DNA of 32,000 bases from Planctopirus limnophila DSM 3776. GTDB lineage: Bacteria; Planctomycetota; Planctomycetia; Planctomycetales; Planctomycetaceae. The stretch covers positions 1,200,001-1,232,000 of the forward strand of contig NC_014148.1 in the NCBI RefSeq assembly GCF_000092105.1. The letters are read 5' to 3'. The notes beneath the pieces are model-generated. The model ran no database searches, had not been told where the DNA came from, and worked only from the letters and a program-made list of their open reading frames with translations. Positions 2,694-25,855 of the stretch are shown here, piece after piece (within the stretch, counting starts at the first letter, position 1; the number at the start of each line of letters is the position of its first letter). The position numbers and the translations under genes are program-made.

Positions 2694-4073
2694 ATGAAAA
2701 TTGCGTCCATGATGGTCGCTCTGGGAGGCCTGCTGGCCTTCGGACTGGCAGATGTTGCCGAAGCAAAATACTGCGGTGCCGCAAGGTATCGCTGCTGTCC
2801 TACTGAGGCATGTGCCCCGGCTGGCGATTACTGCGCCGCCAAGGCCTGCCCCACGACGTGCTACCAGACCGTTCAGGAAACGGTTTGGGATACGAAGCAG
2901 TACCAGTGCTGCCGCACGGTGTACGATCAGGTGACTTGCCAAGTGCCAGTGACCTGCACCCGTACCATTCGCGAGACCTGCTATCGTGAAGAGTGTTACA
3001 CCGTGTGCAAGCCTGTTTATCAGACTTGCTATCGGGAAGTGACCTGCACGATCAAGAAGCCGGTTTACCAGACGTGCTATCGCGACGTGACCTGCACCAT
3101 CAAGAAGCCGGTTTACCAGACCTGCTATCGCGACGTCTGCTACACCAAGTGCCGTCCTGTGTTCCAGACCTGCTATCGCGATGTGACCTGCACAGTCAAG
3201 AAGCCTGTCTGCGAAACGCATTATCGTCAGGTCTGCTGCACAACTTATCGGACAGAGACCGAGACCTGCTACCGAGACGTCTGCTACACCGTCTGCAAGC
3301 CTGTCACAACATACAAGACTGTGGAAGAGTGCACTGGCGAATGGGTGACTGAAACTTATCAGATCCCTGGCAAAATGGTGCAGAAGTGCGTGCAAGATCC
3401 CGGGACATGGGAATGGGATCCTTGTGCCTGCAAGTGTGTTTATCGTCCTGGTTGTGCCCGGATGGTTTGCGAGCAGTGCCCACCAACAACCTGCTGCAAG
3501 CGAACATGGGTTCCCCGTAAGGTTTGCAAGCAAGTTCCCTGCACGACGTATGTCCGTGAGACACAAACCTGCAAGCAGCCATATACTGTTTGCCGACGAG
3601 TACCTGTGCAGTCTGTGAAGCAAGTTCCTTACACCTGCGTTCGCTGGGAAAAAGAATGCGTGACGAAGCGCGTTCCTTACACGACCTGCTCGATGGTTCG
3701 TGAAACATGCACGAAGCGGGTGCCATACACGACCTGCTCGTGGACAACTGAGTGCATCACCAAGCGAGTTCCTTACACAACCTGCTCGTGGACAACGGAA
3801 TGCATCACCAAGCGGGTGCCTTACACGACCTGCTCGATGACACGTGAAGTGAAAACCCGTCAGGTGCCTTACACGACCTGCCGTCAGGTCTGTGAGACCA
3901 AGATGGTGACAAAGACCAGTTGCGTGCCACGTAAAGTGGTCGAAACCAAGACGGTCTGCGTGCCACGAACTGTTTGCCGCCGGGTGCCTGTCACGGCCTG
4001 TGCCGCTGTTGATCCGAGCTGTGCAGTTCCTGCAGCTACGGCTCAGGCTCCCTGCAGCACATGCACCAAGTAG
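2694..4073 (+). CDS. Secreted Cys-rich repeat protein, planctomycete YTV-type
   Basis: 459 aa with signal peptide MKIASMMVALGGLLAFGLADVAEA and AGGA 10 nt upstream of the ATG. I count 61 Cys. There are two arrays of 16-residue repeats (CYRDVTCTIKKPVYQT and TKRVPYTTCSWTTECI) with recurring (V)PYT(T/V)C motifs. A strong terminator follows. Confidence 0.85.
   Translation: MKIASMMVALGGLLAFGLADVAEAKYCGAARYRCCPTEACAPAGDYCAAKACPTTCYQTVQETVWDTKQYQCCRTVYDQVTCQVPVTCTRTIRETCYREECYTVCKPVYQTCYREVTCTIKKPVYQTCYRDVTCTIKKPVYQTCYRDVCYTKCRPVFQTCYRDVTCTVKKPVCETHYRQVCCTTYRTETETCYRDVCYTVCKPVTTYKTVEECTGEWVTETYQIPGKMVQKCVQDPGTWEWDPCACKCVYRPGCARMVCEQCPPTTCCKRTWVPRKVCKQVPCTTYVRETQTCKQPYTVCRRVPVQSVKQVPYTCVRWEKECVTKRVPYTTCSMVRETCTKRVPYTTCSWTTECITKRVPYTTCSWTTECITKRVPYTTCSMTREVKTRQVPYTTCRQVCETKMVTKTSCVPRKVVETKTVCVPRTVCRRVPVTACAAVDPSCAVPAATAQAPCSTCTK
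2979..3218 (+). repeat. In-frame tandem repeat array 1 in the YTV gene (5 x 48 nt)
   Basis: Units start at 2979, 3027, 3075, 3123 and 3171, each with TGCTATCG. The units at 3027 and 3075 are nearly identical at the nucleotide level. Confidence 0.85.
3615..3902 (+). repeat. In-frame tandem repeat array 2 in the YTV gene (6 x 48 nt)
   Basis: Units start at 3615 (degenerate), 3663, 3711, 3759, 3807 and 3855 and encode T(K/R)(R/Q)VPYTTC plus 8 residues. The units at 3711 and 3759 encode identical peptides. Confidence 0.85.
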
Positions 4074-4091
4074 GTCTTTCCTTACAGATTT

Positions 4092-4139
4092 CAATCAGCC
4101 AGGTGTTGCCTCAAGGCCTCCCTGGCTGATTGTTTTTCT
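4092..4139 (+). terminator. Rho-independent terminator of the YTV gene
   Basis: A 12-bp perfect stem, CAATCAGCCAGG (4092-4103) paired with CCTGGCTGATTG (4121-4132), is followed by TTTTTC. Confidence 0.8.
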
Positions 4140-4476
4140 GGAATCGTGGCGTGAGCATCGAGTTGATCTTACGGGGAAAGCCAACCTGCAAACCTCTAAA
4201 AACGCTAATTTTGGAGAGAGGTGCAGTTATCCATAGCCGGAAAGTTTCGTGAGAGGATTTGTGGTGATTCCTGCTGATTCTTGAGAGTTTCTTTGTTGTT
4301 CCCTTGGCAAACTCTGGGGATCAAACAATCAAAGAACCGAGTTTAGGTTGACAAATAAGTTGACAGTCGGTGAACCTAAGCATTCTTGGAAACTTTGTGT
4401 ACTTGTTGAGGCGAGTATCCAGAGCCACCTAATGGAGTTCACCTGAGAAGCGTTGCAAGCGAAGGGAGTCTCATCC

Positions 4477-6219
4477 GTGTTGCAGATTCAACTGGGTAAG
4501 TGGTCTACGAAGTGCTTTTCTGCTCTGGCACTTGGTGCCAGTCTTCTGGCAGCCACGATGGTGACTCGGGCTGATGAACCACGCATTACTTTCGTGCAAC
4601 CGGGTGCTGACCGACTTCGGGAAGATCTGAAGTATCTGGTGAATCTGGCCCCCACGCCGGCACTCAAAAAGGAATGGGAAAACCTCGACGCCACGCTGGA
4701 AAGCTTTCTGGCGGGTGTGGATGGCAAAACGCCCATTCGCGTTGATGTGATTCTGGGCGATAAGGAACTGATTTATCAGCTGAACTTCCCGACCACCAAG
4801 CTCGAAGGCCGGGATGGCTTTTTGGACAACGTGGCTTCGTTTGGCTACACGGTCAAAAAGAATGCTGCCGGTCATTATGATCTGACAGAGCAGGGGGCTT
4901 CGAAGCGCAAGTATTTTCTGCGGGCCAATGGCAAGTATGCCATGCTCAGCCAGCGGCTACAGGACATTCCTGCGAATGCACCGGATCCCGGGAAGCTGGC
5001 ACAGAATCTCCTCAGTGGGTCACAGGATATTGTGGCTGACCTGAAGAATGATCCCGCCACCATCACCCAGCGACAAGCCGACTTCACCAAGCTTCGCGTA
5101 GAACTCGAAGCGGCTGTTAAATTCAAACGCGACGAGGCCAAAGAAGTTTTTGAGCTGCGCAAGCTGGGGACAAACCACCAGTTGTCCGAACTCGAACGGT
5201 TTATCGTTCAGTCTGAGCATCTGCAGGCGACGTGGACCACAGATATTGAGGCGGGGAAAGGTTCAGGGACATTGCTCCTGACGGCTCTTCCGGGGACTGA
5301 GCTTGAAAAGAGCATTGCCTTACTCGGAACCAAACCAAGTGCCTTTTCGGCGATCAAGCTGCATGATCAGCCCGTGATCTCGGGTAAGACCTGCTTTGAA
5401 CTCGACGACATGCGGCAGAAGCATTTGATCGAGTTTTATCCGGTGATGAATGCCGCTATTGGCGTGAATATCGAGAACCGTCCGAATCTCACGGCGGAAG
5501 GGAAAGCGGCTGCCAACGAATTTTCCAAGACACTCTTTGCGCTTCTGATAGACGGTGTCTCGTTAGGTGTAGTCGATTCGTATGTCGACCTGCATGCTGT
5601 CGAGGGGAATGTGCATAACATGACGTGTGGAATTCTGGCGAAGGAGACTTCGACGGTTCCCGCTCTGTTAGCACTTATGCCCAAGATTCGAGACGACTGG
5701 AAATACGAAGCCAATGTGGCAGAACATAATGGCGTGAAGATCCACAAGCTGACCTTCCCCGCTCGTCGCCTGGAAGGGTTTCAGTCGATCTTCGGGAAAG
5801 ATCAAAGCGATCTTTACATTGGCGTCGGGAAGGAGATCGTCTGGGGTGCGGCTGGCAAAGGTGGCTTGGACGAACTGAAAGCTGCCATCGACCAGCAAGC
5901 CAGTGGTGAGAAGACAGTCAGCCCGGTGGTACTCTCCGGTACGGTCAAGTTTGGGCCGACGGTGCAGCTCCTGGAAATCTTCCGTGGGAACACTCCTGTC
6001 TCGAAGACCGGGAAATCCAAGGCAGAACTGGACCGCATCAAGAAGATTGAGAACCTGCGTAAGATGGCTGTCGATGCCTTCGCCAGTGGCGACGACCTGC
6101 TGACCTTCAGCCTCGAGCGTAAAGATAAAGAAGTCGTGGGCCAACTCAATGTTAACCAGGGAATTCTGCGATATGTGGGCTCGGTGATTGCGAACTTCTC
6201 GAAGGAAGCTTTGCGATAA
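4477..6219 (+). CDS. Secreted hypothetical protein (~580 aa), distant paralog of the 16797-18719 product
   Basis: The ORF is open from TTG at 4453. An in-frame GTG at 4477 has AAGGGAG 8 nt upstream and yields a signal peptide (KCFSALALGASLLAATMVTRA). I recognise no catalytic motif. A strong terminator follows. Confidence 0.8.
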   Translation: MLQIQLGKWSTKCFSALALGASLLAATMVTRADEPRITFVQPGADRLREDLKYLVNLAPTPALKKEWENLDATLESFLAGVDGKTPIRVDVILGDKELIYQLNFPTTKLEGRDGFLDNVASFGYTVKKNAAGHYDLTEQGASKRKYFLRANGKYAMLSQRLQDIPANAPDPGKLAQNLLSGSQDIVADLKNDPATITQRQADFTKLRVELEAAVKFKRDEAKEVFELRKLGTNHQLSELERFIVQSEHLQATWTTDIEAGKGSGTLLLTALPGTELEKSIALLGTKPSAFSAIKLHDQPVISGKTCFELDDMRQKHLIEFYPVMNAAIGVNIENRPNLTAEGKAAANEFSKTLFALLIDGVSLGVVDSYVDLHAVEGNVHNMTCGILAKETSTVPALLALMPKIRDDWKYEANVAEHNGVKIHKLTFPARRLEGFQSIFGKDQSDLYIGVGKEIVWGAAGKGGLDELKAAIDQQASGEKTVSPVVLSGTVKFGPTVQLLEIFRGNTPVSKTGKSKAELDRIKKIENLRKMAVDAFASGDDLLTFSLERKDKEVVGQLNVNQGILRYVGSVIANFSKEALR

Positions 6220-6255
6220 GCTGGTGACATGAGCGACATGATGCGGTGAAAAGAT

Positions 6256-6293: not shown

Positions 6294-6335
6294 GAACTTG
6301 TGATCCTCAACGAATGCGTTGTCCAGGAATCACAA

Positions 6336-6386
6336 GCGCGTCGTTGTTTACGGAGGCATGCTTGCCCAGAGCTGCAAGCATGGCAC
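6336..6386 (+). repeat. H1 repeat
   Basis: The hairpin is CATGCTTGC (6357-6365) paired with GCAAGCATG (6374-6382), with the same flanks. Confidence 0.8.
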
Positions 6387-6423
6387 TTAGCGGACCCTAC
6401 TCGCTGCAAACATTGCACAAATC

Positions 6424-6579
6424 AAACGACGGGAACAAGCCTCATTACCGATTGGAGACAAAGAAGGTTATTGCCGGTGGTGTGCGGAAGATGGTCCGCA
6501 CAGCGGACCCTACGAGTTGATTCATTAATGCGTGATCTTTATTCATCATGCTGCGGATGAAAGTGGTTCGGGCCGGGCT
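6424..6579 (+). repeat. Direct repeat DR-L flanking the F1 cassette island
   Basis: It aligns with 7891-8031 over ~140 nt, with about a dozen substitutions and one ~15-nt indel by hand alignment. It contains a REP-a core. Confidence 0.8.
6491..6513 (-). repeat. REP-a (GTAGGGTCCGC-tgt-GCGGACCAT)
   Basis: This copy is in inverted orientation, inside DR-L. Confidence 0.8.
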
Positions 6580-6581
6580 CT

Positions 6582-6775
6582 CAGGGTGGCGCAGGTTGCT
6601 CGTCTGCGAACTACCTGTGTGACGGGGGCAAAAGAGGTTTTGCTGCCGGAAGAAATGTCATATGAGTCTCTGAGGAATTCAGGTGGAAACTTGACGGAGT
6701 TGCATGTCTGCAAATGCCGTCTTGTGCCGAAGCCACCCCGGTAGAAATCGGAATTTCAACCGGGGGCACAAAGAC
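6582..6775 (+). repeat. F1 composite structured repeat, copy A (3' closing arm diverged)
   Basis: It has the CAGGGTGGCGCAGGT head, the 5' hairpin, the conserved core and the 3' hairpin CCCCGGTAGAAATCGGAATTTCAACCGGGG at 6736-6765. Confidence 0.85.
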
Positions 6776-6831
6776 TCCATGTGAAAATCTGACACCACCC
6801 AAAAACAAAACACCCGCAACTCCAGAGAATG

Positions 6832-7083
6832 CTACCATTCCACTACGACAGGACTTCCTTTATCAGTCAACCACTTAACGACCTCCTCAACTGCAGATTG
6901 TCTGTCGGCATCAGTAAACGGCTCACAATCATGTGGAGGCTCCCACTGGGTTGTCCCACGCGGCAACACTATAGTGTCATACTTCAACAGTGCTTTATCT
7001 GTAAAGTAGATGTCGGTGTAAACGAGCGTGACGCGGTGACCTATTTTTACCTCGAAATGACTGGGGGTTACATCGATTATCAT
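6832..7083 (-). CDS. Small cytoplasmic hypothetical protein (83 aa), cassette ORF between F1 copies A and B
   Basis: ATG at 7083 with GGAG 6 nt upstream and TAG stop at 6832-6834. The product is MIIDVTPSHFEVKIGHRVTLVYTDIYF...WEPPHDCEPFTDADRQSAVEEVVKWL. I recognise no family; an immunity-protein-like feel is only an impression. Confidence 0.55.
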   Translation of the reverse strand: MIIDVTPSHFEVKIGHRVTLVYTDIYFTDKALLKYDTIVLPRGTTQWEPPHDCEPFTDADRQSAVEEVVKWLTDKGSPVVVEW

Positions 7084-7134
7084 AGTTCACTCCAAACGCA
7101 TTGCCAGGCAAAACTTTGCTGTCACACTTGTCAT

Positions 7135-7311
7135 GCAGGGTGGCACAGGTTACTCGTCCGCAAGCTACCTGTGTGCTCGAGGCGAAAGAGGTTTGGCTGC
7201 TGTAAGCACTGCAATATGAGTCTCTGAAGATCACAGATGGGACTTTGCCAGTGCCCTCTTGTGGCTTGGCTACTCCGGTAGAAATCGGAATTTCAACCGG
7301 GGCCACACTGC
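7135..7311 (+). repeat. F1 composite structured repeat, copy B
   Basis: GCAGGGTGGC (7135-7144) pairs with GCCACACTGC (7302-7311). Both hairpins and the core are present. Confidence 0.85.
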
Positions 7312-7562
7312 CTGTAGAGAGAATCGAGAAGTTGCCAGACAGGTCGTCGAAAGTCATCTCCTGTCAACGCTTTGCCATACCATTTCTGAAGGCGATCATT
7401 GAAGTCTTCGTCCCTCCCGCTGAATATGTCGTAAAGGCAGGCATCGTCTGAAACAAAGTAAGGCCGATCCTCGTTATCGAACATGCGATCAAGGAACTCT
7501 GAAAGCTGGCTCTCTCTCTCCTTCAACTTATCGTCTTCCGCGAAATCGAATTCTTGGCTCAT
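7293..7562 (-). CDS. Small acidic hypothetical protein (89 aa), cassette ORF between F1 copies B and C
   Basis: ATG at 7562 with GGAG 7 nt upstream (residue 93 of the 181-aa track ORF). The product is MSQEFDFAEDDKLKERESQLSEFLDRMFDNEDRPYFVSDDACLYDIF.... The last 19 nt and the stop codon lie inside F1 copy B. Confidence 0.55.
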   Translation of the reverse strand: MSQEFDFAEDDKLKERESQLSEFLDRMFDNEDRPYFVSDDACLYDIFSGRDEDFNDRLQKWYGKALTGDDFRRPVWQLLDSLYRQCGPG

Positions 7563-7590
7563 GGGGTTGCTCCAATCGGCACGAATCCAC

Positions 7591-7769
7591 CGCAGGGTGG
7601 CACAGGTTGCTCGTCTGTGAGTTATCTGTGTGCCGGAGGCAGAAGAGGTTTTGCTGTCGCAAGCATTACAGTATGAGTCCCTGAAGATCTCGGATGCAAC
7701 TCTGCCAGGGCTCTCCTGTGGCTTCACGACCCCGGTAGAAATCGGAATTTCAACGGGGTCCACCCTGCG
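7591..7769 (+). repeat. F1 composite structured repeat, copy C
   Basis: CGCAGGGTGG pairs with CCACCCTGCG as the closing stem. The 5' hairpin carries three wobble-compatible transitions. Confidence 0.85.
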
Positions 7770-7799
7770 TATTATGCACAACGATGCCTTGTGAGGGTA

Positions 7800-7853
7800 G
7801 TTTCTTGTGCCTGTCGTCACACAGACGTGCAAAGCCACATTTGGGCCACCCTG
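7800..7853 (-). repeat. X repeat, truncated inverted copy
   Basis: The reverse complement reads CAGGGTGGCCCAAATGTGGCTTTGCACGTCTGTGTGACGACAGGCACAAGAAAC. Confidence 0.75.
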
Positions 7854-7890
7854 TCAGGAACTTTTTGATTGCAGCCCGGAGAGCCTGGGT

Positions 7891-8031
7891 AAACGACGGG
7901 AACGAGCCTCATTACCAATTGGAGACAAAGAAAGTGATCGGTGGTGGTGTGCGGAAGATGGTCCGCACAGCGGACCCTACTCGCTGATCTTCACTGATCA
8001 TGCTGCGGATGAAAGCTGTTCGGTCTGGGCT
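7891..8031 (+). repeat. Direct repeat DR-R, overlapping the 3' end of lpxB
   Basis: This is the partner of DR-L. Positions 7998-8031 are the lpxB stop codon and last ~10 codons. Confidence 0.8.
7958..7980 (-). repeat. REP-a
   Basis: This copy is in inverted orientation, inside DR-R. Confidence 0.8.
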
Positions 8032-9173
8032 TGATCTGTGGTGAGCCGGAGAATCAGATCGGCAGTGCGAGTCAAAGCTCCGGCGTTTACAACATCTCGC
8101 CTCAGGGCATCGAGTTCTTCCAGCTTCAGGGTCATCTGCTGAGGATCGGCCAGCCAGGGAGAAATCGCATCAGCCATCTGCCGGCCGGCTTCCGGCGCCT
8201 CTCCCACAAAGAGCAGTTCCGGGAAGATGCGGCGATTGGCCATCAGGTTCGGGAGTGAAAAGTGCGGAATGTGAATGATCTGGCGGCCAATCCAGTGTGT
8301 CAGCTTACTGCAGGAGTAGAACGTGGCGTACGGAGTGCGGCGGGCCAGAAGTTCGAGCGCGACTGAACCAGAGACAACCAGGGCACAATCCGCAATATCG
8401 ATGATCTCGGGAGTGCGGCCCACGAAAAAGTTCATGCGCAATCCCCCGCCTGTGCGCACAAATTCTTCACTACACCACTGGCGCTGCTTCTCTTTGTAAT
8501 TGGCAACGTAAAAAGTGAGATCGTCGAAACGCTCGTGGAGCATGCGGGCCGCTTCGAGCATGCGGGGCCAGTTATGGGTGACTTCATGACCACGCGAGCC
8601 GGGGAGCAAGGCGACGACGCGACCGGCTTGTGGTTTCCATTCTCTTACAAAAGATTGATCCAGTGGATGATGGACAATCTCATCGAAGAAGGGGTGTCCC
8701 ACATTGGTGACGGGAACATTTCGCTGGGCGTACCATTCGGTCTCGAACTGTAAACCTGAAATCACATGATCGACGGTGCGTTTGAGTTTGTGAATTCGCC
8801 AACCACCCCAGGCCCACATCTGGGGAGGCATGAAGTAGTAGACGGGAATCCCTAACGATTTGGCTGCTTTGGCAATGTGCCAGTTGAAGCCGGGAAAATC
8901 GATGAGCACGACGGCATCCGGGCGGTGCTGCTTCAGATGAGCACGTGCCTGGCGGAAGACTTTGTAGAAGGTGGTCAGGAGTGGGAGGACCCGGAAGATC
9001 CCCATCACCGCCAGATTGGTGAGAGGGTAGATTACTTCACATCCAGCGACTTCCATGGCTGGGCCGCCCAGTCCGCTGACTTTCAGGCCTGGATGACGAT
9101 GCTGGAGCGCGCGAATGAGGTGAGCGGCATGCTGATCGCCACTGGGTTCGCCCACGGAAAAGAAAATATGCAT
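7998..9173 (-). CDS. lpxB: Lipid-A-disaccharide synthase
   Basis: 391 aa with an N-terminal FFSVGEPSGDQHAAHLIRAL motif, VVLIDFPGFN, PPQMWAWGGWR and LLPGSR blocks typical of LpxB (GT19). The last ~10 codons lie in direct repeat DR-R. Confidence 0.9.
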   Translation of the reverse strand: MHIFFSVGEPSGDQHAAHLIRALQHRHPGLKVSGLGGPAMEVAGCEVIYPLTNLAVMGIFRVLPLLTTFYKVFRQARAHLKQHRPDAVVLIDFPGFNWHIAKAAKSLGIPVYYFMPPQMWAWGGWRIHKLKRTVDHVISGLQFETEWYAQRNVPVTNVGHPFFDEIVHHPLDQSFVREWKPQAGRVVALLPGSRGHEVTHNWPRMLEAARMLHERFDDLTFYVANYKEKQRQWCSEEFVRTGGGLRMNFFVGRTPEIIDIADCALVVSGSVALELLARRTPYATFYSCSKLTHWIGRQIIHIPHFSLPNLMANRRIFPELLFVGEAPEAGRQMADAISPWLADPQQMTLKLEELDALRRDVVNAGALTRTADLILRLTTDQAQTEQLSSAA

Positions 9174-9369
9174 GATGATCGTCCCTGACTGCCCGGTCGT
9201 CGTTCACCAGTGGTTAAGGCCATCGCTGGCATCACTTACGAAGCCTGGTAAACAATCTCGCCATCCATTTGAGATCTGTGTTGAGACAGATCGTCCGATG
9301 GATGGCGTTTGCGGTCAAGGCGAGGTTTTGCTGGCCGATGAAATTGAGCCTGCGCTATCAGGACTGTCT

Positions 9370-9609
9370 TCAGGCGGCTTCGCGTTCGGCGACGGCTGCT
9401 GAGCGATTTTGAAGCAGTGGAACGACCTGTCCCAGGAGACGCTTCATTTCGGCGACGACACCCATTTCCAGCTCGTCGGTGGAAATCCCTTCACAGGCTT
9501 GTACGCAGGCGTAAATCCGGCGGACAAGTTCGCGATTTCCTTCCGTATCGACGCCATGCAGCTCGCCGTCGGTTGAAAGAACGAACATCGGAGCAGATGT
9601 CTGTTCCAT
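9370..9609 (-). CDS. Small hypothetical protein (79 aa) upstream of lpxB
   Basis: ATG at 9609 with GAAGG 7 nt upstream. The product is MEQTSAPMFVLSTDGELHGVDTEGNRELVRRIYACVQACEGISTDELE.... The longer track ORF (to 9930) runs through a repeat hairpin. Confidence 0.5.
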   Translation of the reverse strand: MEQTSAPMFVLSTDGELHGVDTEGNRELVRRIYACVQACEGISTDELEMGVVAEMKRLLGQVVPLLQNRSAAVAEREAA

Positions 9610-9866
9610 CGTCTTACCTTCTGTTGGGGGCCAATTTTCCATCATTCGCGACCACGGCCTCAAGTGACTCAGTGGCGACAGATGGAGATGTTTTCGGTGG
9701 AGATCGACAGCCAGACGGCAATTCCGCCATATGAAATGTGGGACTTTAACGAATAGGACGACTTTCAGGTAAAACCTGCGATGGTTGATCGGCTCATTCT
9801 GCAGGAGGGCGGAGCGACTCTCAGGATTGTGGAATTTCGTGGTGGGATACTTCCCAGAAAGTGACA

Positions 9867-9917
9867 GCGCGTTGTGGGTTGCGAAAACATGCTTGCCCAG
9901 GGCTGCAAGCATGGCAC
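9867..9917 (+). repeat. H1 repeat
   Basis: The hairpin is CATGCTTGC (9888-9896) paired with GCAAGCATG (9905-9913), with the same flanks. Confidence 0.8.
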
Positions 9918-10057
9918 TCATATCGCTCATATTTTATGGAAAGCGTGTGAGATGTTTTTTCAGCTGGAAACGACGAGCAATCTGATCAACAATGTTTGAT
10001 TGGTGAGACAGAACTTCTCGATTGGCCCTGTGGATTGCCATTGTGACTCAGGAGAAC

Positions 10058-10933
10058 ATGCACTGGTTGCAGGAAGGGCAGGGGCGGCTGCCTGTCTGTC
10101 TCTGGTCGTTTACCACTGATGCGCCACTCGCGGATTTGAAGCTGGCTCGGGAGACGGGCGAAGTTGTGGCCAGCGATCATTCGGGTGGGATTTATCTGAT
10201 CGATATTGAAGGGCGGGTGCGCGCACTGACCCGTTTAGGGCAAGTCGCCCGCGAAGTCGGCTTTGCTGATAATGGGGCCACGATTGCTGCGGTCTCCGGG
10301 CCGAGTTCGCTTTCTCTCATGAATCGAAAGCTCTCGTTCCAGTGGACGAGGCAACTCCCTGACAGCATTCTCGCCACTGCACTTGCCCCTTATGGTGAAC
10401 ATGTTGCCGTTTCGCTGACCGATGGCATGAATGCGATTTATACACTGGGGAATAAGAAACAGGCGACTTTTCAAACGCCCAGACCGCTCAAACATCTGGC
10501 GTTTCTGGGAACTGAAGCGGCATTGATTGGTGCGGCTGAGTATGGACTGATTTCCAAAATCCGCCTGGATGGACAGATTCTGTGGTCCGAATCGCTCTGG
10601 TCGACAGTGGGTGGATTGGCAGTCACCGGGAATGGCGAATCGATTCTGCTGGCAGGTTACATGCACGGGCTGCAGATGTTCGGCAATGATGGTTCTTCGG
10701 CGGGAACTTTGATGCTCGACGGCACAGCGAGCCATGTGGGCCAGAGTTTTCATCAACATCGCATTTACTCAGCCACGCTGGAGCAACATCTGGCCTGCCT
10801 GAGCAAAGCGGGAGACCTGGTTTATCTCTTAGGATTGCCGGAACCACTGCATCGTCTGCAGGTGACAGCAATGGGGGATGCGGTGATTGTGGGATTTCCC
10901 TCCGGGCGCATTATGAAACTCGCGATGCTGTAA
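10058..10933 (+). CDS. Beta-propeller repeat protein (PQQ/WD40-like), no signal peptide
   Basis: It contains repeated ~40-aa units with G-x-hydrophobic-strand patterns (DHSGGIYLIDIEGRV, ADNGATIAAVSG, GLISKIRLDGQILW, GNGESILLAG). ATG at 10058 is preceded by AGGAG with short spacing. The ORF is also open from TTG at 10022. Confidence 0.65.
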   Translation: MHWLQEGQGRLPVCLWSFTTDAPLADLKLARETGEVVASDHSGGIYLIDIEGRVRALTRLGQVAREVGFADNGATIAAVSGPSSLSLMNRKLSFQWTRQLPDSILATALAPYGEHVAVSLTDGMNAIYTLGNKKQATFQTPRPLKHLAFLGTEAALIGAAEYGLISKIRLDGQILWSESLWSTVGGLAVTGNGESILLAGYMHGLQMFGNDGSSAGTLMLDGTASHVGQSFHQHRIYSATLEQHLACLSKAGDLVYLLGLPEPLHRLQVTAMGDAVIVGFPSGRIMKLAML

Positions 10934-10966
10934 TCGATCGGTGGTTTGTCAGAACGGAGCCAGGCT

Positions 10967-12310
10967 ATGCAGACATCCTCAACACGAATGTTATCCCGTC
11001 GGCATCTTTTGCGGGGAGCGGGAGCTATGCTGGCGCTGCCACTTCTGGACGCCATGCTCCCTCGAACGTGGGGAGCGCCTTCGCAGTTCAAACCGTGGAA
11101 TCGCTCGCATGGACCACAGCCGCGGATGATCTGCTGCTATATTCCGAATGGTGTGAATATCCTCGAATGGGTGCCCGAAACAACGGGGAAAGAGTACCAG
11201 TTATCAAAGACTCTGCAGGTGCTGGAGCCTCATCGGGCTGATTTCACTGTCCTGTCGGGACTGGGGCATCCGGCTTCGCAAGGTGGGCATAGTGGAGCCG
11301 ATACGTGGCTGACGGGGGCCAATCTGCAAGCGGTGCCGGGTGCCGATTATACGAATAGCGTGTCGATGGATCAGATCGTGGCAGATCTTCATGGGAAGCA
11401 CACGCGCTACGGGTCTTTGCAGCTCAGTGATCAATCGGGAACGGGGAGTGCAGGGCATAGCCATACACTTTCTTTTGATGTTAATGGGACGCCACTTCCT
11501 GCCGAGAACTCGCCGCAACGATTATTCGAGCGACTGTTTGTTCCCGAAAGTGCGGCTGATAAAACGGCGACGCTTCGTCGTCTGGCCGAGAAGAAATCGA
11601 TTCTTGACAGCGTGCGTGAGGATGCGAAGCGGCTGGAAAAAACACTCGGCAAGCGTGATCGACAAAAACTCGATGAGTATTTCACGAGTATCCGCACGAC
11701 GGAAGAGCAGCTCAGCCGGATGGAAGCGTGGATTGATCGGCCCAAGCCGGAAGTTCCACCCACGAATCTGCAACTGGCGAGTCAACCGGGCAATGCCCAT
11801 GATCGCCCGATGTGGATTGATGTGATGCTGGAACTGGCTTATCTGGCCTTTCTGACAGATACGACGCGCGTCATCACGTTCGAATGGTCGCGCGAAGCGG
11901 GTGGATTTGGCGGTGGCGGTGAGAATCATCACGAGTATTCCCATCATGGTGGGGATGCCGGGATGCTGGCCAAGCTGGGGCAAATTGACCGCTTTCATTT
12001 GTCGAAGCTCGACCGCTTTATGAATCTGCTCAAATCGACGACTGAGGCGGACAGCCACATGCTGGACCAGACGATCATTGTTTACGGCAGTGGGATGAAT
12101 TCCGGCAAAGGGGGCGAGCACTCACCGAAGAACCTGCCTCTGCTGGTGGCTGGTGGCAAGAAGCTGGGCCTGAAGCATGGACAGCATCTGGCGTTTGATT
12201 CCGATAAGCATCCTCCGTTGTCGAACGTGCTGCTTTCGCTGGCTCAGAAGATGGGTGTGGAATCGGACCGCTTTTCGGACGCCACGGGTACGCTGACGGG
12301 ACTCGTTTGA
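10967..12310 (+). CDS. DUF1552-family protein with Tat-like signal
   Basis: ATG at 10967 with GGAG 7 nt upstream. The N-terminus MQTSSTRMLSRRHLLRGAGAMLALPLLDAMLP and a size of ~447 aa are typical of planctomycete DUF1552. An ENHHEYSHHGG block is present. Confidence 0.8.
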   Translation: MQTSSTRMLSRRHLLRGAGAMLALPLLDAMLPRTWGAPSQFKPWNRSHGPQPRMICCYIPNGVNILEWVPETTGKEYQLSKTLQVLEPHRADFTVLSGLGHPASQGGHSGADTWLTGANLQAVPGADYTNSVSMDQIVADLHGKHTRYGSLQLSDQSGTGSAGHSHTLSFDVNGTPLPAENSPQRLFERLFVPESAADKTATLRRLAEKKSILDSVREDAKRLEKTLGKRDRQKLDEYFTSIRTTEEQLSRMEAWIDRPKPEVPPTNLQLASQPGNAHDRPMWIDVMLELAYLAFLTDTTRVITFEWSREAGGFGGGGENHHEYSHHGGDAGMLAKLGQIDRFHLSKLDRFMNLLKSTTEADSHMLDQTIIVYGSGMNSGKGGEHSPKNLPLLVAGGKKLGLKHGQHLAFDSDKHPPLSNVLLSLAQKMGVESDRFSDATGTLTGLV

Positions 12311-12342
12311 AGCCAGGGGCATCCTTCCAGAGAGCAAAACAG

Positions 12343-12407
12343 CCGGTTGATAAGCACGATGCTCACCAACCGGTTGCAAGAACTCTGGCAATCAAGACTC
12401 GATTGCC
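12343..12407. terminator. Two hairpins in a convergent intergenic gap (candidate bidirectional terminators)
   Basis: CCGGTTG (12343-12349) pairs with CAACCGG (12367-12373), and GGCAATC (12387-12393) pairs with GATTGCC (12401-12407). There is no clear U-tract. Confidence 0.3.
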
Positions 12408-12419
12408 GGGATTATCGAT

Positions 12420-13394
12420 TTAGTATTCGCCGACTGTTTCGCGACCACCTCGTGAACCGAGAGCGCGGTAGGTGGTGATGTCGATGTTTTCGGAGATGAA
12501 CTTTACTGAACCATCGGCCATGGCAAAGAACGCACCACCTGTGTGCCAGCTGCCAAAACCGATCTGAGCAGCTTCACCACGGACAGTCAGGTCGAGAGCT
12601 GCGTTGATTTTGACGGCAGCCGAGCCTGTACATTCGGAAAACTCTGATCCACTCGTGTTGCCGGGAGCCCAACCACCTGATTGGGGGATGGAGATGATCC
12701 AGTGATCAAAAGCAACACCATTCCGGCCGGCTGAGGGATTGGTGTAGAACTCACCGATCATAATGGTGTTCGATGTTCCATCGATGACATCGCGGATGCG
12801 CACAGAACTGACTCCAAAGAACATCCCGTCCGGGGCGGAAGCATTTTCGTGAGAGACCGCACCGGTGGGTGCACCGACAGTGGTTAATTCTGAATCCTGA
12901 TCGGCGTAGACGTTGCTGCCCGAGCAGACTCCGTAGCTTAAAACCCCGCGACCTGGGATCGATTCGCTATCGATATTGCTGGCGACAGCCATACTGGGGC
13001 AGCGGAAGATGGGGATATTGGCACCAGAAGTGGCCATGTTTGCGACACAATTACTGTTATTCCAGTTACCGGGATCACCTTCGGCTCGAATGATCGTGTT
13101 GAATAGAGCTGTCTGTTCAATCTGAGGGAGGATCTGATTGGTCCAACTGCCTTCCAGAGTATCCCAGGCAAAAACAAACGTATTCGAGTTGTCGTGATAG
13201 TTATGCATCGCCAGAGCGAGGTTTTTCAGATTATTGCGGCAAGCTGTCCTGCGAGCGGCTTCTCGTGCCTGTTGCACAGCGGGTAGCAAGAGGGCAATGA
13301 GGATCGCGATAATCGCAATGACGACGAGCAACTCGATGAGTGTAAAGCCATTTCTGGCAGGATGGGCGGCAGGTTCCGACTTACGAATGACCAT
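12420..13394 (-). CDS. DUF1559 (H-X9-DG) protein with prepilin-type N-terminal cleavage/methylation domain
   Basis: ATG at 13394 with AGGA 6 nt upstream. It has the leader plus GFTLIELLVVIAIIAILIALLLPAVQQAREAARRTACRNNLKNLALAMHNYHD, and a C-terminal SWHTGGAFFAMADGSVKFISENID (H-x9-DG). Confidence 0.9.
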   Translation of the reverse strand: MVIRKSEPAAHPARNGFTLIELLVVIAIIAILIALLLPAVQQAREAARRTACRNNLKNLALAMHNYHDNSNTFVFAWDTLEGSWTNQILPQIEQTALFNTIIRAEGDPGNWNNSNCVANMATSGANIPIFRCPSMAVASNIDSESIPGRGVLSYGVCSGSNVYADQDSELTTVGAPTGAVSHENASAPDGMFFGVSSVRIRDVIDGTSNTIMIGEFYTNPSAGRNGVAFDHWIISIPQSGGWAPGNTSGSEFSECTGSAAVKINAALDLTVRGEAAQIGFGSWHTGGAFFAMADGSVKFISENIDITTYRALGSRGGRETVGEY

Positions 13395-13463
13395 TTCGTT
13401 CCTAATAGAATTTGAGAAGATTACGAGCAGAGCGCGCTTTTCAGGAATACTCAGTGGGGAGAA

Positions 13464-13943
13464 TTAATACTGCCCCTGCGGAGTTGAATAGAGTTCGAAG
13501 TTGATTTCGTTAGTACCTGCCACGACATCCGCGGTTAATGTGGTTTTGTTGTGGTAGATGGGGAGTAGCTTCTCGACTGGTTCTGGTGCACCTTCAACGA
13601 CAGGAGAAGGTGTGTACCCGGAGATTTCGGGTGGACTGAAGACGGTGCGAATCACGACAGATTTCTTACCGATGGCCGCCCCCTTCTGCTTCTGGTCGAA
13701 AATCAGTTCATATCGACCGTCGCTATCGGTAATGCCCCAGGAGCTGCTATAGCCCGCTTCGGAGAATGTGACCATGGCGTTCGGGAGCGGTGTGCCATCG
13801 AGAGTGACCCGGCCTGTGACTGGTGCCCACTCAAACATCTGATAATTACCGGAAACATCGTTCGAGCAGCCTGCTGCGAAACTCAGGATATATAAATACA
13901 GGGAGCCGGGAACGAGCAGGGATCTGAAGAATCTCGCGTGCAT
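13464..13943 (-). CDS. Lipoprotein with carboxypeptidase-regulatory-like domain (usual DUF1559 companion)
   Basis: ATG at 13943 (residue 77 of the track ORF). It has the lipobox LSFAAGC and VTGRVTLDGTPLPNAMVTF...GITDSDGRYEL. The upstream part of the track ORF is an off-frame reading of the neighbouring gene's 3' end. Confidence 0.7.
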   Translation of the reverse strand: MHARFFRSLLVPGSLYLYILSFAAGCSNDVSGNYQMFEWAPVTGRVTLDGTPLPNAMVTFSEAGYSSSWGITDSDGRYELIFDQKQKGAAIGKKSVVIRTVFSPPEISGYTPSPVVEGAPEPVEKLLPIYHNKTTLTADVVAGTNEINFELYSTPQGQY

Positions 13944-14019
13944 CAATTGAACCTTGATGTTGATGTGTGAAGTCTGGCCAGATAGCGAACACCGGGACGA
14001 AAAAGATGATTGTCTAGTA

Positions 14020-14976
14020 CTAGTATTCGCCAACAGTTTCGCGGCCCGCTCGGGAGCCGAGGGCTCGGTATGTTGTGAGGTCGATGTTTTCGGAGATGAA
14101 TTTGACAGAGCCATCGGCCATCGCGAAGAAGGCTCCGCCCGTGTGGTAGCTGCCAAAGCCGGCTTCGGCAAATTGACCGGGGACTGTCAGATCGAGCCAG
14201 CCGTTGATCTTGGAGCCAGTTCCACCGATACATTCGCTGAATTCCGTGCCGCCTGTGGTGCTCGATGGTGCCCAGTTGCCGGATTGAGGGACACAGATGA
14301 TCCAGTGATCGAACGCCTGGCCATCTCGACCGTTCATGTTGGTGTAAAACTCCCCCAGCATGACGGTGTTGGAGGTGCCGTCGATGACGTCGCGAATACG
14401 GACGGAACTGCAACCCCAGAAGATCCCGTCGAGATCATTATCTGAGAGGGCCTTGGCACCGGCCGGGACGGGGAGTGAGGCCAGTTCGCTGGCGTTGTCT
14501 GTGAAGACATTACCGCCGCCGCAGACTCCGTAGCTGGCGACGCCGCGATTGGGGATACTCTCATTGGTCAACTGGGGTGACATGGCGGTGCTGGGACAGA
14601 ACATGACGGGAATTGAGGCTCCGCCGGCCGCGTTATTGGCAGGGCTGCTGGTGTTCCAGTTCCCCGGGTTTCCTTCGGCGCGGATGATTGTGCTGAACAG
14701 CGGAGCCTGGTCGATTTGTGGCAGAATCTGGCTCGACCAGCTCCCTTCGAGCGAGTCGAAGGCAAAGACGAAGGTTCCATGCTGGTCATGGTAGTTGTGC
14801 ATGGCCAGGGCCAGGTTTTTCATGTTGTTCCGGCAAGCCGTCCGACGGGCTGCTTCTCGTGCCTGCTGAACAGCGGGCAAAAGGAGGGCAATGAGAATCG
14901 CAATAATGGCGATCACCACCAGCAGCTCGATGAGTGTGAAGCCTGCTGAACGGTTTTTTTGTGGATTGCTGGTCAA
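14020..14976 (-). CDS. DUF1559 (H-X9-DG) protein with prepilin-type leader, tandem paralog of 12420-13394
   Basis: TTG at 14976 with GGAG 8 nt upstream gives the leader MTSNPQKNRSAG|FTLIELLVV. The ORF is open to 15015. N- and C-terminal ~50 and ~40 residues are almost identical to the paralog at protein level. Confidence 0.9.
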   Translation of the reverse strand: MTSNPQKNRSAGFTLIELLVVIAIIAILIALLLPAVQQAREAARRTACRNNMKNLALAMHNYHDQHGTFVFAFDSLEGSWSSQILPQIDQAPLFSTIIRAEGNPGNWNTSSPANNAAGGASIPVMFCPSTAMSPQLTNESIPNRGVASYGVCGGGNVFTDNASELASLPVPAGAKALSDNDLDGIFWGCSSVRIRDVIDGTSNTVMLGEFYTNMNGRDGQAFDHWIICVPQSGNWAPSSTTGGTEFSECIGGTGSKINGWLDLTVPGQFAEAGFGSYHTGGAFFAMADGSVKFISENIDLTTYRALGSRAGRETVGEY

Positions 14977-16773: not shown

Positions 16774-16796
16774 ATGACTACCCTACTCTGAGTTGC

Positions 16797-24546: not shown

Positions 24547-24752
24547 GCAGGGTGGCACAGGTTGCTCGTCCGCGAGCTACCTGTGTGCCGGAGGAAAAGG
24601 AGGCATTGTTGGAAAAAGCCCTCTTCAGTTAGTTTATGACAGTTTTTTATATTCAACTGAATCAGGCGAGGCGTTCATCCTTTTGGGTTTTCACCACCCC
24701 GGTAGAATCGGAATTTCAACCGGAGCCACTCTGCCAACCTGTGCCACCCTGC
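24547..24752 (+). repeat. F1 composite structured repeat, copy D (core replaced; perfect 16-nt terminal inverted repeat)
   Basis: GCAGGGTGGCACAGGT (24547-24562) matches ACCTGTGCCACCCTGC (24737-24752). The 5' and 3' hairpins are retained, and the middle (~24597-24700) is unrelated AT-rich sequence. Confidence 0.8.
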
Positions 24753-24776
24753 GCACACCATCCGTTCAGATGAACA

Positions 24777-25235
24777 TCACCTACCGTCAACCTCCAATGG
24801 AGTTCCGTTCGCCACAATCTCAATCCTATTCTTACACTCCTCGAATAAAGGAAATGAAGCAGATGTTAATCGCGTTCGAGACACATATAAATAGCGAATC
24901 TTCTCACTACGAACAATCGCCTTGAACGATTCATCACCAAAAACGCTATCAGATAACTCAAGAAAGTCCACATTTGGAAAGTGCTTAAGAAGATCCTCTA
25001 GTCCGTCATCAACACCAGTTGCAAATGGTATCTGCAAGGCTTTCACGGAGGCAAACACGCCATTCACGTCAATATCCCTCATGTCTATGTTCCTCTTTTT
25101 GAAAGACGTCAAATACACGGCCTTGAGACTTGGGAGGCGAGGCTCGCTGAAAACCTGCTCAAACCACCAATAGGGTATTGAAATTGCCGCTGGCTTCTGC
25201 TTTTCAATGGCTTTCAAGTCAGAGAATGTCGGCAC
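24777..25235 (-). CDS. Leucine-rich-repeat-like protein (152 aa), probably the C-terminal part of a split lipoprotein gene
   Basis: LRR-like periodicity is visible (LKAVYLTSF, IDVNGVFASVKALQIPF, FPNVDFLELSDSVFGDESFKAI, IRYLYVSRTRLTSASF). The only start is GTG at 25235, which lies 19 nt inside the upstream ORF. Confidence 0.55.
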   Translation of the reverse strand: MPTFSDLKAIEKQKPAAISIPYWWFEQVFSEPRLPSLKAVYLTSFKKRNIDMRDIDVNGVFASVKALQIPFATGVDDGLEDLLKHFPNVDFLELSDSVFGDESFKAIVRSEKIRYLYVSRTRLTSASFPLFEECKNRIEIVANGTPLEVDGR

Positions 25236-25450
25236 CGGTGGAAAAAAAGTCGCTCACCATACGGCGACGGAAGGGGCATGGCTCCAGCAGGTGGATCAAA
25301 GCCTTCACGATAAACAGTTAATAGTTCGCCAGCGGCTTCAGGTTGGCTATTGTAGCTGCTCGAAGGTCCCTTTGGGCCGCAGCCTGCCACCAATATCAGA
25401 TATGCTGCCAAAGCTGGCATCCCGAGCAACACAGAACAACGCACGATCAT
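25214..25450 (-). CDS. Lipoprotein signal-peptide ORF (78 aa), probably the N-terminal part of the split gene
   Basis: ATG at 25450 and lipobox LILVAGC. The frame ends 8 codons after a T7 run. The -1 frame continues into the LRR ORF. Confidence 0.5.
   Translation of the reverse strand: MIVRCSVLLGMPALAAYLILVAGCGPKGPSSSYNSQPEAAGELLTVYREGFDPPAGAMPLPSPYGERLFFHRCRHSLT
25241..25249 (-). other. T7 homopolymer / T_TTT_TTC slippery heptamer at the junction of the two overlapping ORFs
   Basis: The minus strand reads CGA CTT TTT TTC CAC in the upstream frame. One extra T or a -1 slip gives ...LFF PPVPTFSDLK..., in frame with the LRR ORF. Confidence 0.6.
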
Positions 25451-25483
25451 GATTAACCCACCTATGTTTTAAAGCACTTCAGG

Positions 25484-25643
25484 GCAGGGTGGCCCAGACG
25501 TGGCTTTGCACGTCTGGGTTACGATAGGAACAAGAAACACCGAATAAACGCAATGAGTCCTGACCCTTTCGATATTCCTCAATCTCGCACGGCAGGCTCC
25601 CGCCTGCTGGCTGAGTATGCCACACTCGCTGGACTCATTCCAG
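25484..25643 (+). repeat. X composite repeat, copy 1 (GCAGGGTGG head + CCCAGACGTG hairpin + spacer + REP-d unit)
   Basis: It is nearly identical to 28602-28760 by hand alignment. The hairpin is CCCAGACGTG-gctttg-CACGTCTGGG. Confidence 0.85.
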
Positions 25644-25657: not shown

Positions 25658-25855
25658 CCGCAGGGTGGCACAGGTTGCTCGTCTGCGAGCTACCTGTGTG
25701 CCGGAGGCAGGGGAGGTTTGATTGCTGCAAGCATGGCAATACGAGTCTTTGAGGATCATTAACGGAATTCGAGCAGATTTGCGGTTCTGCCAATGCCCTA
25801 TTGCGGCTTCACCACCCCGGTAGAAATCAGAATGTCAACCGGAGCCACCCTGCGG
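25658..25855 (+). repeat. F1 composite structured repeat, copy E
   Basis: It has a perfect 12-bp closing stem, CCGCAGGGTGGC paired with GCCACCCTGCGG. The 3' hairpin has two substitutions. Confidence 0.85.

Follow-up and report, generated by a model that had tools for sequence, protein, structure and literature searches.

A structured repeat, possibly of the BIME/REPIN kind, bounds small orphan immunity and toxin cassettes in Planctopirus

What a repeat with two hairpins does between small genes, and whether it is a mobile element, a recombination site or an RNA module, is the question raised by a hot spot in the genome of Planctopirus limnophila DSM 3776. Our analysis of a 32,000-nt stretch of this genome (hereafter the window) revealed five copies of the repeat, here called F1, of 180-197 nt each and all on the + strand. 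Repeat searches and nhmmer, with E-values of 1e-46 to 1e-58, established as real copies A, B and C, from which the original prediction had started, as well as the further copies D and E. The explanation that we favour, with evenly divided confidence, is that F1 is a lineage-specific BIME/REPIN-like repeat bounding orphan immunity and toxin cassettes, and that its resemblance to rAID-1 clusters and to integrons is one of layout only. The copies are as follows.

6580..6775, + strand: F1 copy A, with a type I centre and a 17-nt insertion; 3' arm of the inverted repeat lost
7135..7312, + strand: F1 copy B, type II; gives the 89-aa gene its final 6 codons and stop codon
7591..7769, + strand: F1 copy C, type II; positional orthologue of P. 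ephydatiae L015 10037-10214 and of a MAG copy in L006
24546..24735, + strand: F1 copy D, with a divergent AT-rich centre
24736..24753, - strand: inverted fragment of the F1 5' end, 18 nt, abutting copy D (AACCTGTGCCACCCTGCG)
25659..25854, + strand: F1 copy E, with a perfect 11-bp terminal inverted repeat; placed 182 nt past the stop codon of a DUF1559 gene

Anatomy, distribution and position of F1

F1 is built of a 5' hairpin, a conserved core, a variable centre and a 3' hairpin of 13 bp with one A-A mismatch, enclosed by a terminal inverted repeat (CGCAGGGTGGC...GCCACCCTGCG). The original prediction had described this anatomy correctly, including the one mismatch in the terminal complementarity of copy B and the absence of the 3' arm from copy A. 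Two REP-like stem-loops that differ from each other stand in it as an inverted pair, on either side of a fast-evolving spacer of ~90 nt; the ends of the element are conserved and its centre is variable. Both stem-loops are headed by GCAGGGTGGC, which gives the whole element its 11-bp terminal inverted repeat, and the two inverted units are predicted to combine into a larger fold with an 11-bp terminal stem and two hairpins. A protein-coding F1 was rejected because of a 17-nt indel in the variable centre and of stop codons in most frames.

Beyond the five copies of the window, 14 further full or partial copies were found across nine Planctopirus-like contigs. Pattern scans of genome contigs, from a collection evidently containing neither P. 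limnophila nor P. ephydatiae, and of metagenome contigs revealed only 8 genuine additional loci, and four copies in one MAG; scans of viral contigs and of plasmids gave 0 copies. F1, a lineage-specific repeat, was found only in Planctopirus-like planctomycetes. Its subtypes are common to several genomes and are not homogenised within one array, the nearest relatives of copy A being copies in contigs L003 and L005. An origin of copies A, B and C by tandem duplication was rejected, because copy A belongs to a different subfamily that occurs in other genomes too. Partial copies keep single modules (the 5' hairpin by itself in L007, 3' modules by themselves in L005, L011 and L015), and the module directly after the stop codon is always kept. 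The flanks of 13 full copies were read, and none showed a target-site duplication.

The repeat holds a strict orientation towards genes and lies just behind their stop codons. The gene at the F1 3' end lies on the opposite strand in 16 of the 17 cases with a gene available on that side, at a distance of -20 to 292 nt between F1 and its stop codon, and at many stop codons the hairpin begins somewhere between 20 nt within the ORF and ~60 nt beyond it. Single copies stand also behind ordinary genes (DUF1559, DUF1990 and lpxB). Local GC skew was inconsistent with respect to F1 orientation across loci, and replication-strand bias, considered as a cause, was dropped.

Cassette genes and their replacement between species

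Copies A, B and C bound two small genes inside a variable locus with conserved flanks.

4453..6219, + strand: gene of a 588-aa secreted protein, conserved left flank of the variable locus
6832..7083, - strand: cassette gene 1, a complete Imm74 immunity protein of 83 aa (Pfam PF15603, E 1.1e-30, model positions 1-80 of 80)
7293..7562, - strand: cassette gene 2 (Plim_0941), a conserved acidic protein of 89 aa with no Pfam match
7998..9173, - strand: lpxB, conserved right flank of the variable locus

Both minus-strand ORFs carry GGAG 6-7 nt ahead of the ATG and start 51 nt (83-aa ORF) and 28 nt (89-aa ORF) from the 5' edge of an F1 copy, as had been predicted. The 89-aa ORF terminates 20 nt inside copy B and takes its stop codon from F1. 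For n co-oriented compact cassettes there are n+1 F1 elements, each cassette being followed by one F1; the cassette 5' leaders measure 14-51 nt, and the stops range from a position 20 nt within the following F1 (the 89-aa ORF in copy B) to one 56 nt short of it. The spacers that carry F1 in the array are 209-285 nt long, and the G+C content of the cassettes (48-51% vs 52-60% in the flanks) shows a small dip.

The main new fact of our analysis is that the cassettes belong to polymorphic-toxin/immunity biology. A toxin or immunity gene recognised by Pfam is present at only about 3 of 9 independent F1 loci, which counts against the reading favoured here, and most cassette proteins are without Pfam or NCBIfam matches. 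Plim_0941 is probably an immunity protein as well. Its homologues in other assemblies number 13 at 52-73% identity, besides the identical Plim_0941, and their neighbours are RHS-repeat genes in one case, an ankyrin protein in another and housekeeping genes in a third. The AlphaFold model of the 89-aa protein (pLDDT 56) was too poor for a fold search.

The syntenic locus of P. ephydatiae, which was reached via Spb1_17160, the one match to translated F1, aligns with the window over positions 2856-6226 at 94.5% and 7586-17847 at 93.3% identity. A protein search with F1 reading frames joined end to end gave no match. In the interval between these flanks F1 alone is common to both species, and between the F1 copies of P. 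ephydatiae stand other small ORFs and a weakly HNH-like 3' gene fragment, which is followed by a 130-aa ORF. Cassette content has been replaced between species whose flanks are 93-94.5% identical. The proposal of a cassette-like array is borne out by this replacement, by the ORFs between the copies, which are real genes (one of them Imm74), and by the lack of a recombinase nearby. In the orthologous F1 copy the differences cluster in the generally variable centre, and the search for a breakpoint was uninformative. On a related contig, F1 lies beside an orphan toxin fragment with a Hint C-terminal motif (weak support from PDB 2lwy), followed by a HEAT-repeat gene, and on another a solo F1 hairpin lies beside a SUKH-3 immunity gene. 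The junctions of F1 cut into genes, as seen from the HNH-like fragment, the Hint fragment and a 33-nt remnant of lpxB.

Such gene content is familiar from polyimmunity loci (Zhang et al. 2012, PMC3482391), in which tandem co-oriented unrelated immunity genes vary between close relatives and orphan toxin 3' fragments are each followed by an immunity gene. Imm74 itself has been described as the partner of Tox-ARC and in heterogeneous polyimmunity loci varying between strains, and extended loci of this kind have not been reported from planctomycetes (Zhang 2012, PMC3482391). In the loci described there, genes follow one another closely and no conserved structured element separates them, whereas the genes of the present array are set apart by the long spacers carrying F1, and one of its two genes falls in a recognised Imm family.

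Explanations for F1

F1 has its head in common with other repeats of the window, and three features lie next to its copies.

6424..6579, + strand: diverged duplicate of 7891-8046 (90% over 98 nt; 82% over 156 nt), abutting the 5' edge of copy A
7800..7865, - strand: F2 repeat, an inverted copy next to copy C, with GCAGGGTGGC head and hairpin CCCAGACGTG..CACGTCTGGG
25476..25642, + strand: F2-containing repeat immediately 5' of copy E; second copy at 28594-28760, 92%

The window contains 15 occurrences of the head motif GYAGGGTGG, where 0.5 would be expected; the motif is common to both ends of F1, to F2 and to a GTAGGGTGGGTTAAG REP family. The F1 head also opens the F2 repeats of the same genome and is very similar to that of the GTAGGG-headed REPs with which the intergenic regions of the window are filled; the GTAGGGTGG heads of other window repeats are related to it, but it has GCAG in place of the canonical GTAG. 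Modules are found joined into mosaics: in L011 an F2 is fused to an F1 at nt 22. The segment 7891-8046, duplicated beside copy A, comprises an intergenic REP region together with the last 11 codons and the stop of lpxB. Much of this recalls the REP, BIME and REPIN elements that go with RAYT (Y1/HUH) transposases (Di Nocera 2013, PMC3733652; Bertels and Rainey 2011, PMC3116915), which are stem-loops with a conserved unpaired head, combine as inverted pairs into a larger structure, form mosaics with other repeat modules, lie outside genes and downstream of ORFs, cause no target-site duplication and occur as several families per genome. The position of F1 agrees with the published pattern of REPs, which lie behind ORFs where the neighbouring genes are unidirectional or convergent, and a planctomycete has been reported to have REPs together with many tyrosine transposases (PMC3733652). 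Of the readings proposed at the outset, the REP/RAYT-type composite fits best (inverted REP-like units, shared head, position downstream of stops, no target-site duplication), and the lack of target-site duplications speaks against a gene-trapping MITE.

Against the REP-like reading count the GCAG head, the two arms, which are different hairpins ~90 nt apart in an element of 180-197 nt, unlike typical REPINs, and the copy number, which appears modest and clustered, not in the hundreds. A strict orientation towards genes, and the close fit of a single element to each cassette, would be expected of attC sites sooner than of REPs. Between the 588-aa gene and lpxB lies a hot spot at which small, compact orphan cassettes of polymorphic-toxin systems are bounded by direct F1 copies. 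On the BIME/REPIN-like reading, these directly repeated copies could serve as portable homology or as hairpin sites by which cassettes are looped out, inserted or swapped. The agent of exchange might be general recombination or an enzyme whose gene lies elsewhere, for instance a HUH transposase resembling RAYT; the array copies share 77-81% identity, which makes them a poor substrate for homologous recombination. In E. coli, REPs protect or delimit cistrons, and by analogy the hairpin that follows each stop in the sense transcript may do the same here.

A competing explanation sees in F1 the attC analogue of a dedicated non-integron cassette system, a recombinase encoded elsewhere moving one ORF together with one F1. 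Integron arrays and CALINs (Cury et al. 2016, PMC4889954) likewise hold n+1 structured imperfect palindromes and compact co-oriented cassettes, their sites have conserved ends, a variable centre and possibly a stop codon inside the element, and a CALIN has no adjacent integrase either. The short leaders, the F1 subtypes shared among genomes without homogenisation in the array, the retention of the module right after the stop codon in partial copies and the replacement of cassettes between sister species would all suit such a system. F1 also folds slightly better on the bottom strand relative to the genes, as attC does, but this preference is small and the z-scores are equal. The rAID-1 clusters of Bacteroidales (recombinase-associated acquired interbacterial defence; Ross et al., bioRxiv 10.1101/471110) offer a precedent, for they are arrays of co-oriented orphan polymorphic-toxin immunity genes with repetitive, integron-like intergenic sequences and a content that varies between related genomes. 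However, rAID-1 clusters by definition begin, at their 5' end, with a gene for a XerD-like recombinase, whereas lpxB lies upstream of the F1 array. They also have two or more co-oriented genes homologous to immunity genes and a skewed, low G+C; in the F1 array one gene is Imm74 and the other a probable immunity gene lacking a family match, and its G+C shows the small dip mentioned above. The array is moreover tiny (2-3 cassettes), has toxin fragments in its relatives and belongs to a different phylum, and F1, unlike the rAID-1 repeats, is 180 nt long with two hairpins and occurs also singly behind ordinary genes. The expectation that the window holds no recombinase proved right: of 26 scanned ORFs of the window, 25 of which reach 113 aa or more, none showed an integrase, transposase or RAYT domain, and neither a tyrosine nor a serine recombinase was found in the window, in the annotation of the 20-kb locus of P. 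ephydatiae (L015) or in the ORFs scanned at other loci. A regex search for the attC cores R'' (RYYYAAC) and R' (GTTRRRY) at the ends of 9 copies +-30 nt on both strands gave none, the single internal match falling in the variable centre of copy D; F1 is also multi-branched and not a single bulged hairpin. Since both the cores and an adjacent intI are absent, a canonical integron attC is excluded. A non-canonical attC-like site, as proposed originally, here with an enzyme encoded elsewhere, is doubtful, gene-cutting junctions being unexpected for clean site-specific cassettes and lone copies standing behind DUF1559, DUF1990 and lpxB. We rate as unlikely a planctomycete counterpart of rAID-1 or CALIN clusters, and give the same low rank to a previously unrecognised cassette-capture system of Planctomycetes, integron-like with another site architecture and an enzyme encoded elsewhere in the genome, that would stockpile immunity genes and orphan toxin ends.

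Three further explanations were weighed. The repeat may act only as RNA, as a 3'-UTR or intercistronic module for stability, termination or processing of the REP/BIME type, kept in place by a need of expression. The fixed orientation to the upstream gene, the hairpin near many stops and the very stable fold of the gene-sense strand (-63 to -94 kcal/mol; z -4.26 for copy E) are consistent with it, and REPs, reported mostly downstream of ORFs, are plausible RNA elements (PMC3733652). We nevertheless think it rather improbable: no U-tract terminator was found inside F1, and such a module leaves unexplained why cassettes differ exactly between F1 copies and why F1 abuts truncated gene fragments. 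The claim that wobble-compatible transitions conserve the fold turned out to be weak, as the two hairpins show no compensatory double changes, only 5 of 635 cells are changed on both sides, and G-U-type and A-C-type changes in the hairpins are equal in number (10 vs 10). For a structured RNA, proposed at the outset, there is no positive support, with negligible covariation, an equally good fold on either strand (copy E, z-score ~ -4.2 on both) and no Rfam match: the whole window gave 0 matches at gathering score, and an E-value search of 6400-8000, which spans copies A-C, gave matches at chance level only (E ~8). An independent small-RNA gene on the + strand, antisense or guide-like with the variable centre conferring specificity, is still far less probable. 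In 11 of 13 copies the + strand folds better by 4-10 kcal/mol, A-to-G changes in the central stem are tolerated where a G-U pair on that strand survives them, and the length of F1 resembles that of known guide RNAs; but the G-U excess sits in stems whose prediction was itself made from the + strand, promoter-like or terminator-like sites bracketing F1 were not found, no gene of a partner protein lies nearby, and partial copies are common. Hardly more credible is an ordinary MITE, derived from an insertion sequence with a DDE transposase and landed by chance between small genes, for which the 11-bp terminal inverted repeat, the size of 180-197 nt and the dispersed subfamilies would speak, but which agrees neither with the lack of target-site duplications at the 13 full copies nor with the non-random orientation and the modular mosaics with other repeats; nor was a parent IS seen.

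Orphan immunity genes in arrays presumably shield bacteria from toxins of neighbouring cells. To our knowledge, how immunity genes are collected is known in outline only, and only for Bacteroidales (rAID-1) and integrons. The F1 locus is a compact example from another phylum, in which one and the same structured repeat flanks every cassette and no recombinase is encoded locally. Since P. limnophila can be grown in culture and planctomycetes are accessible to genetic tools, the exchange of cassettes by a repeat of the REP kind, as in the BIME/REPIN-like reading favoured here, could be tested directly. Were F1 merely a passive REP-like spacer, it would add modestly to the known bacterial repeats, and the locus would still be the first described of the polyimmunity type in a planctomycete.

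The D/E pair

Copies D and E sit in a DUF1559 operon, and their connection with toxins may be nil. Two ORFs lie between them.

24777..25235, - strand: ORF of 152 aa with weak leucine-rich-repeat similarity (PDB LRR proteins, E 0.03-0.3) and no Pfam match
25214..25450, - strand: ORF of 78 aa, a predicted lipoprotein with a signal peptide and the lipobox LVAGC, as read from the sequence

Immunity cassettes and their F1 repeats

The locus between the gene of a 588-aa secreted protein and lpxB is a small array of orphan-immunity cassettes at a variable hot spot of the Planctopirus chromosome, and every cassette lies between copies of F1, a hairpin-rich composite repeat that is REP-like and specific to the lineage. 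The observation is genuine, and more specific than the original prediction could tell. Five F1 copies are present in the window, all on the + strand:

6580-6775, + strand, F1 copy A
6832-7083, - strand, first cassette gene
7135-7312, + strand, F1 copy B
7293-7562, - strand, second cassette gene
7591-7769, + strand, F1 copy C
24546-24735, + strand, F1 copy D
25659-25854, + strand, F1 copy E

A full-length F1 starts with CGCAGGGTGGC and ends with GCCACCCTGCG. Next to the 5' hairpin (GGCACAGGT-GCTCG/CGAGC-ACCTGTG-GCC) stands a conserved core, then a centre of variable sequence that includes a 17-nt indel, and the 3' hairpin comprises 13 bp (CCCCGGTAGAAAT/ATTTCAACCGGGG) with a single A-A mismatch. 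Each end consists of a head, GCAGGGTGGC, with a hairpin behind it, and the ends point toward one another. The terminal repeat carries one mismatch in copy B and lacks its 3' arm in copy A; these features, the copies and both hairpins had been described beforehand and were confirmed by coordinates and sequence. An inverted 18-nt F1 5' end (AACCTGTGCCACCCTGCG, 24736-24753) abuts copy D, directly after it.

The two minus-strand cassette ORFs agree with their earlier description in GGAG sites and in spacing from the repeats. The first encodes a complete Imm74 domain (Pfam PF15603, E 1.1e-30, model positions 1-80 of 80), to which Zhang et al. (PMC3482391) assign ADP-ribosyl-cyclase toxins as partners and which they record both from heterogeneous polyimmunity loci and from planctomycetes. 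For the second, the encoded protein is the same as Planctopirus limnophila DSM 3776 Plim_0941 and has 13 homologues (52-73% identity), of which one adjoins RHS-repeat genes, one belongs to a co-oriented gene series that includes an ankyrin-repeat protein and a third is surrounded by housekeeping genes; no F1 was found at these three loci. Since the homologues terminate right after the motif LLDSLY and the last six codons (RQCGPG) and stop of the window gene are F1-B sequence, the boundary of the cassette is no more than a few codons away from the native stop. In the interval from E to D, which follows a DUF1559 gene, a 78-aa lipoprotein ORF and a 152-aa LRR-like ORF (24777-25450, - strand) overlap by 22 nt in different frames and could be one frameshifted gene; because of this position, the E/D pair may be unrelated to toxin immunity.

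The same chromosomal site in P. ephydatiae and other F1 loci

The 20-kb syntenic locus of P. ephydatiae, reached via one spurious ORF matching translated F1, aligns with window positions 2856-6226 at 94.5% and 7586-17847 at 93.3% identity. Between the 588-aa gene and lpxB, F1 copies are the sole sequence common to both species. The order in P. limnophila is A, Imm74, B, Plim_0941, C. In P. ephydatiae the interval starts with a glycosyltransferase/methyltransferase cluster of 4.7 kb that has a different repeat, X, on either side. After it come a partial F1, an HNH-like 3' fragment (weak, E 0.05) preceding a 130-aa ORF, and a full F1; a 148-aa ORF and one more F1 complete the interval. The cassette difference between relatives at F1 boundaries that the original prediction proposed to look for was thus found. 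The lpxB-adjacent F1 is a positional orthologue in P. limnophila, P. ephydatiae and a MAG (L006), and copy A has a positional counterpart in MAG locus L003. Subfamilies defined by the centre span genomes, uniting A with the L003 and L005 copies, B and C with those of L006 and P. ephydatiae, and L001 with L010. Exact breakpoints are not placeable, as the differences within orthologous F1 concentrate in the generally variable, and hence uninformative, centre. The X-flanked cluster is missing from the window. Repeat X (230-350 bp; L015, the P. ephydatiae locus, 3484-3735 and 8455-8763; L005 6544-6813) holds an open frame, ...DLASSGFGLHDEITQNQGQSR...GYGNWTETNTSGWSESVS, and is fused to the F1 3' module at two places.

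Apart from three chance matches, a scan with a 22-nt pattern taken from the 5' hairpin recovered F1 from Planctopirus-like assemblies only, in which one MAG accounted for four contigs, a second MAG for one and metagenomes for another four; the scanned viral contigs and plasmids gave no matches. Partial copies were added by a later profile search. At L005, two opposite-strand genes are enclosed by one complete F1 copy and one 3' partial copy. The first is the 3' fragment of an orphan toxin, which begins with the last part of a Hint domain (VYNLEVHGEHVYHAGELGLLVHN; supported by weak similarity to a bacterial intein-like domain at its C-terminus), and the second encodes a HEAT-repeat protein, a class of immunity proteins in planctomycetes (Zhang et al., PMC3482391). 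At L011, at least eight co-oriented small ORFs alternate with modules derived from F1 and from a second family, F2. At L007, a SUKH-3 immunity gene lies beside a solo F1 5' hairpin. An ORF of L007 (5785-6225, +), without Pfam or NCBIfam match, resembles by eye the N-terminal part of a planctomycete integrase and ends 77 nt ahead of this hairpin, and an IS4/IS5-type transposase fragment (6937-7671, +) follows the SUKH-3 gene.

Where gene sequence is present on the 3' side of F1, that gene is on the opposite strand in 16 of 17 cases, with its stop codon -20 to 292 nt from F1, frequently <60 nt; partial copies always keep the module after the stop codon. In compact cassettes the next gene starts 14-51 nt past the F1 5' end. 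In three cases the 5' end is fused directly to a truncated gene 3' end:

HNH-like fragment
Hint fragment
6547-6579, 33-nt lpxB remnant

The remnant belongs to 6424-6579, which abuts F1-A and is a diverged direct duplicate (82-90% identity) of 7891-8046. The latter segment, which goes with the intact lpxB, takes in the final 11 codons and the stop of that gene together with the REP region downstream of it. Such a duplication is the pattern that would be expected if the array had entered via a single crossover there.

Structure and kinship of F1

Either strand of copy E gives a fold far more stable than its shuffled versions (z -4.15 and -4.26). The + strand is more stable by 4-10 kcal/mol in 11 of 13 F1 copies and in the alignment fold (-53 vs -41 to -43 kcal/mol), and it owes this advantage to G-U pairing within central stems whose prediction was itself made on the + strand. 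The original prediction regarded the fold as conserved through wobble-compatible transitions, a view that found little support: the two hairpins, able to pair on either strand, show equal numbers of G-U-type and A-C-type changes (10 vs 10) and zero compensatory changes, and both-side changes occupy 5 of 635 cells of the whole structure. As judged from sequence, the structure follows from inverted repeats that are conserved, and the comparison lends no support to selection on an RNA fold. Sites resembling promoters or terminators do not bracket F1.

F1 is a REP/BIME/REPIN-type mosaic in its make-up. Its head opens F2 (CAGGGTGGCCCAGACGTG..CACGTCTGGG), which adjoins copies C and E, and is one base apart from the GTAGGGTGG heads of a REP-like window family; GYAGGGTGG occurs 15 times against 0.5 expected.

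25476-25642, + strand, F2
28594-28760, + strand, F2
7800-7865, - strand, F2
L011, about 5190-5244, F2

F1 modules also occur solo or recombined: the 5' hairpin is solo at L007, and the 3' module is solo or fused to X at L005, L011 and L015. At L011 a truncated F1 5' end gives way to F2 immediately past its nt 22, a junction that points to nested insertion or else to recombination at the heads.

By structure, F1 comes nearest to the REP/BIME/REPIN class, from which it differs in its GCAG head, two dissimilar arms, length and strict orientation; a planctomycete with GTAG-tagged REPs and many tyrosine transposases has been reported (PMC3733652). The closest functional analogue is rAID-1 of Bacteroidales, with immunity-gene arrays and repetitive integron-like intergenic sequences (bioRxiv 10.1101/471110), although its defining XerD-like recombinase is absent at the Planctopirus locus. 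The likeliest reading, to which we give roughly even chances, is that F1 is a REP/BIME-type element; cassettes would be exchanged through its directly repeated copies, and the hairpins may also act on transcripts. A MITE is unlikely, since target-site duplications are absent from every full F1 copy. Canonical attC was excluded by the lack of R''/R' core sites and of intI, and a dedicated attC-like system with its enzyme encoded elsewhere, one of the two main rivals, appears improbable. In line with the original statement that the window lacks such genes, a domain scan of 26 window ORFs found no recombinase, transposase or RAYT domain. The other main rival, a purely RNA-level role, compatible with exchange through REP/BIME-type copies, is likewise doubtful.

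Other repeats and genes of the window

Mosaic clusters of several REP-like families pack the intergenic regions (23760-24540, 16200-16700, 28400-28800, 29675-29880, 31550-31990, 390-700, 6320-6520 and 9850-9906). Many of these repeats start with GTAGGG and continue with a palindrome, e.g., GTAGGGTCCGC-TGTG-CGGACC, GTAGGGTGGGTTAAGG..CAACCCACC and GTAGGGCAGGC-TCCC-GCCTGCC; CATGCTTGCCCAGAGCTGCAAGCATG is a further one.

Two paralogous DUF1559/N-methyl (pseudopilin-like) genes (12420-13394 and 14020-15015, - strand), sharing about 69-81% identity over parts of their length, have a CarboxypepD_reg-like ORF between them, a gene content typical of planctomycetes. A 459-aa ORF with Pfam YTV domains (2694-4073, + strand) contains 48-nt (16-codon) tandem repeats of 61-87% identity in two stretches, 2974-3289 and 3614-3881.
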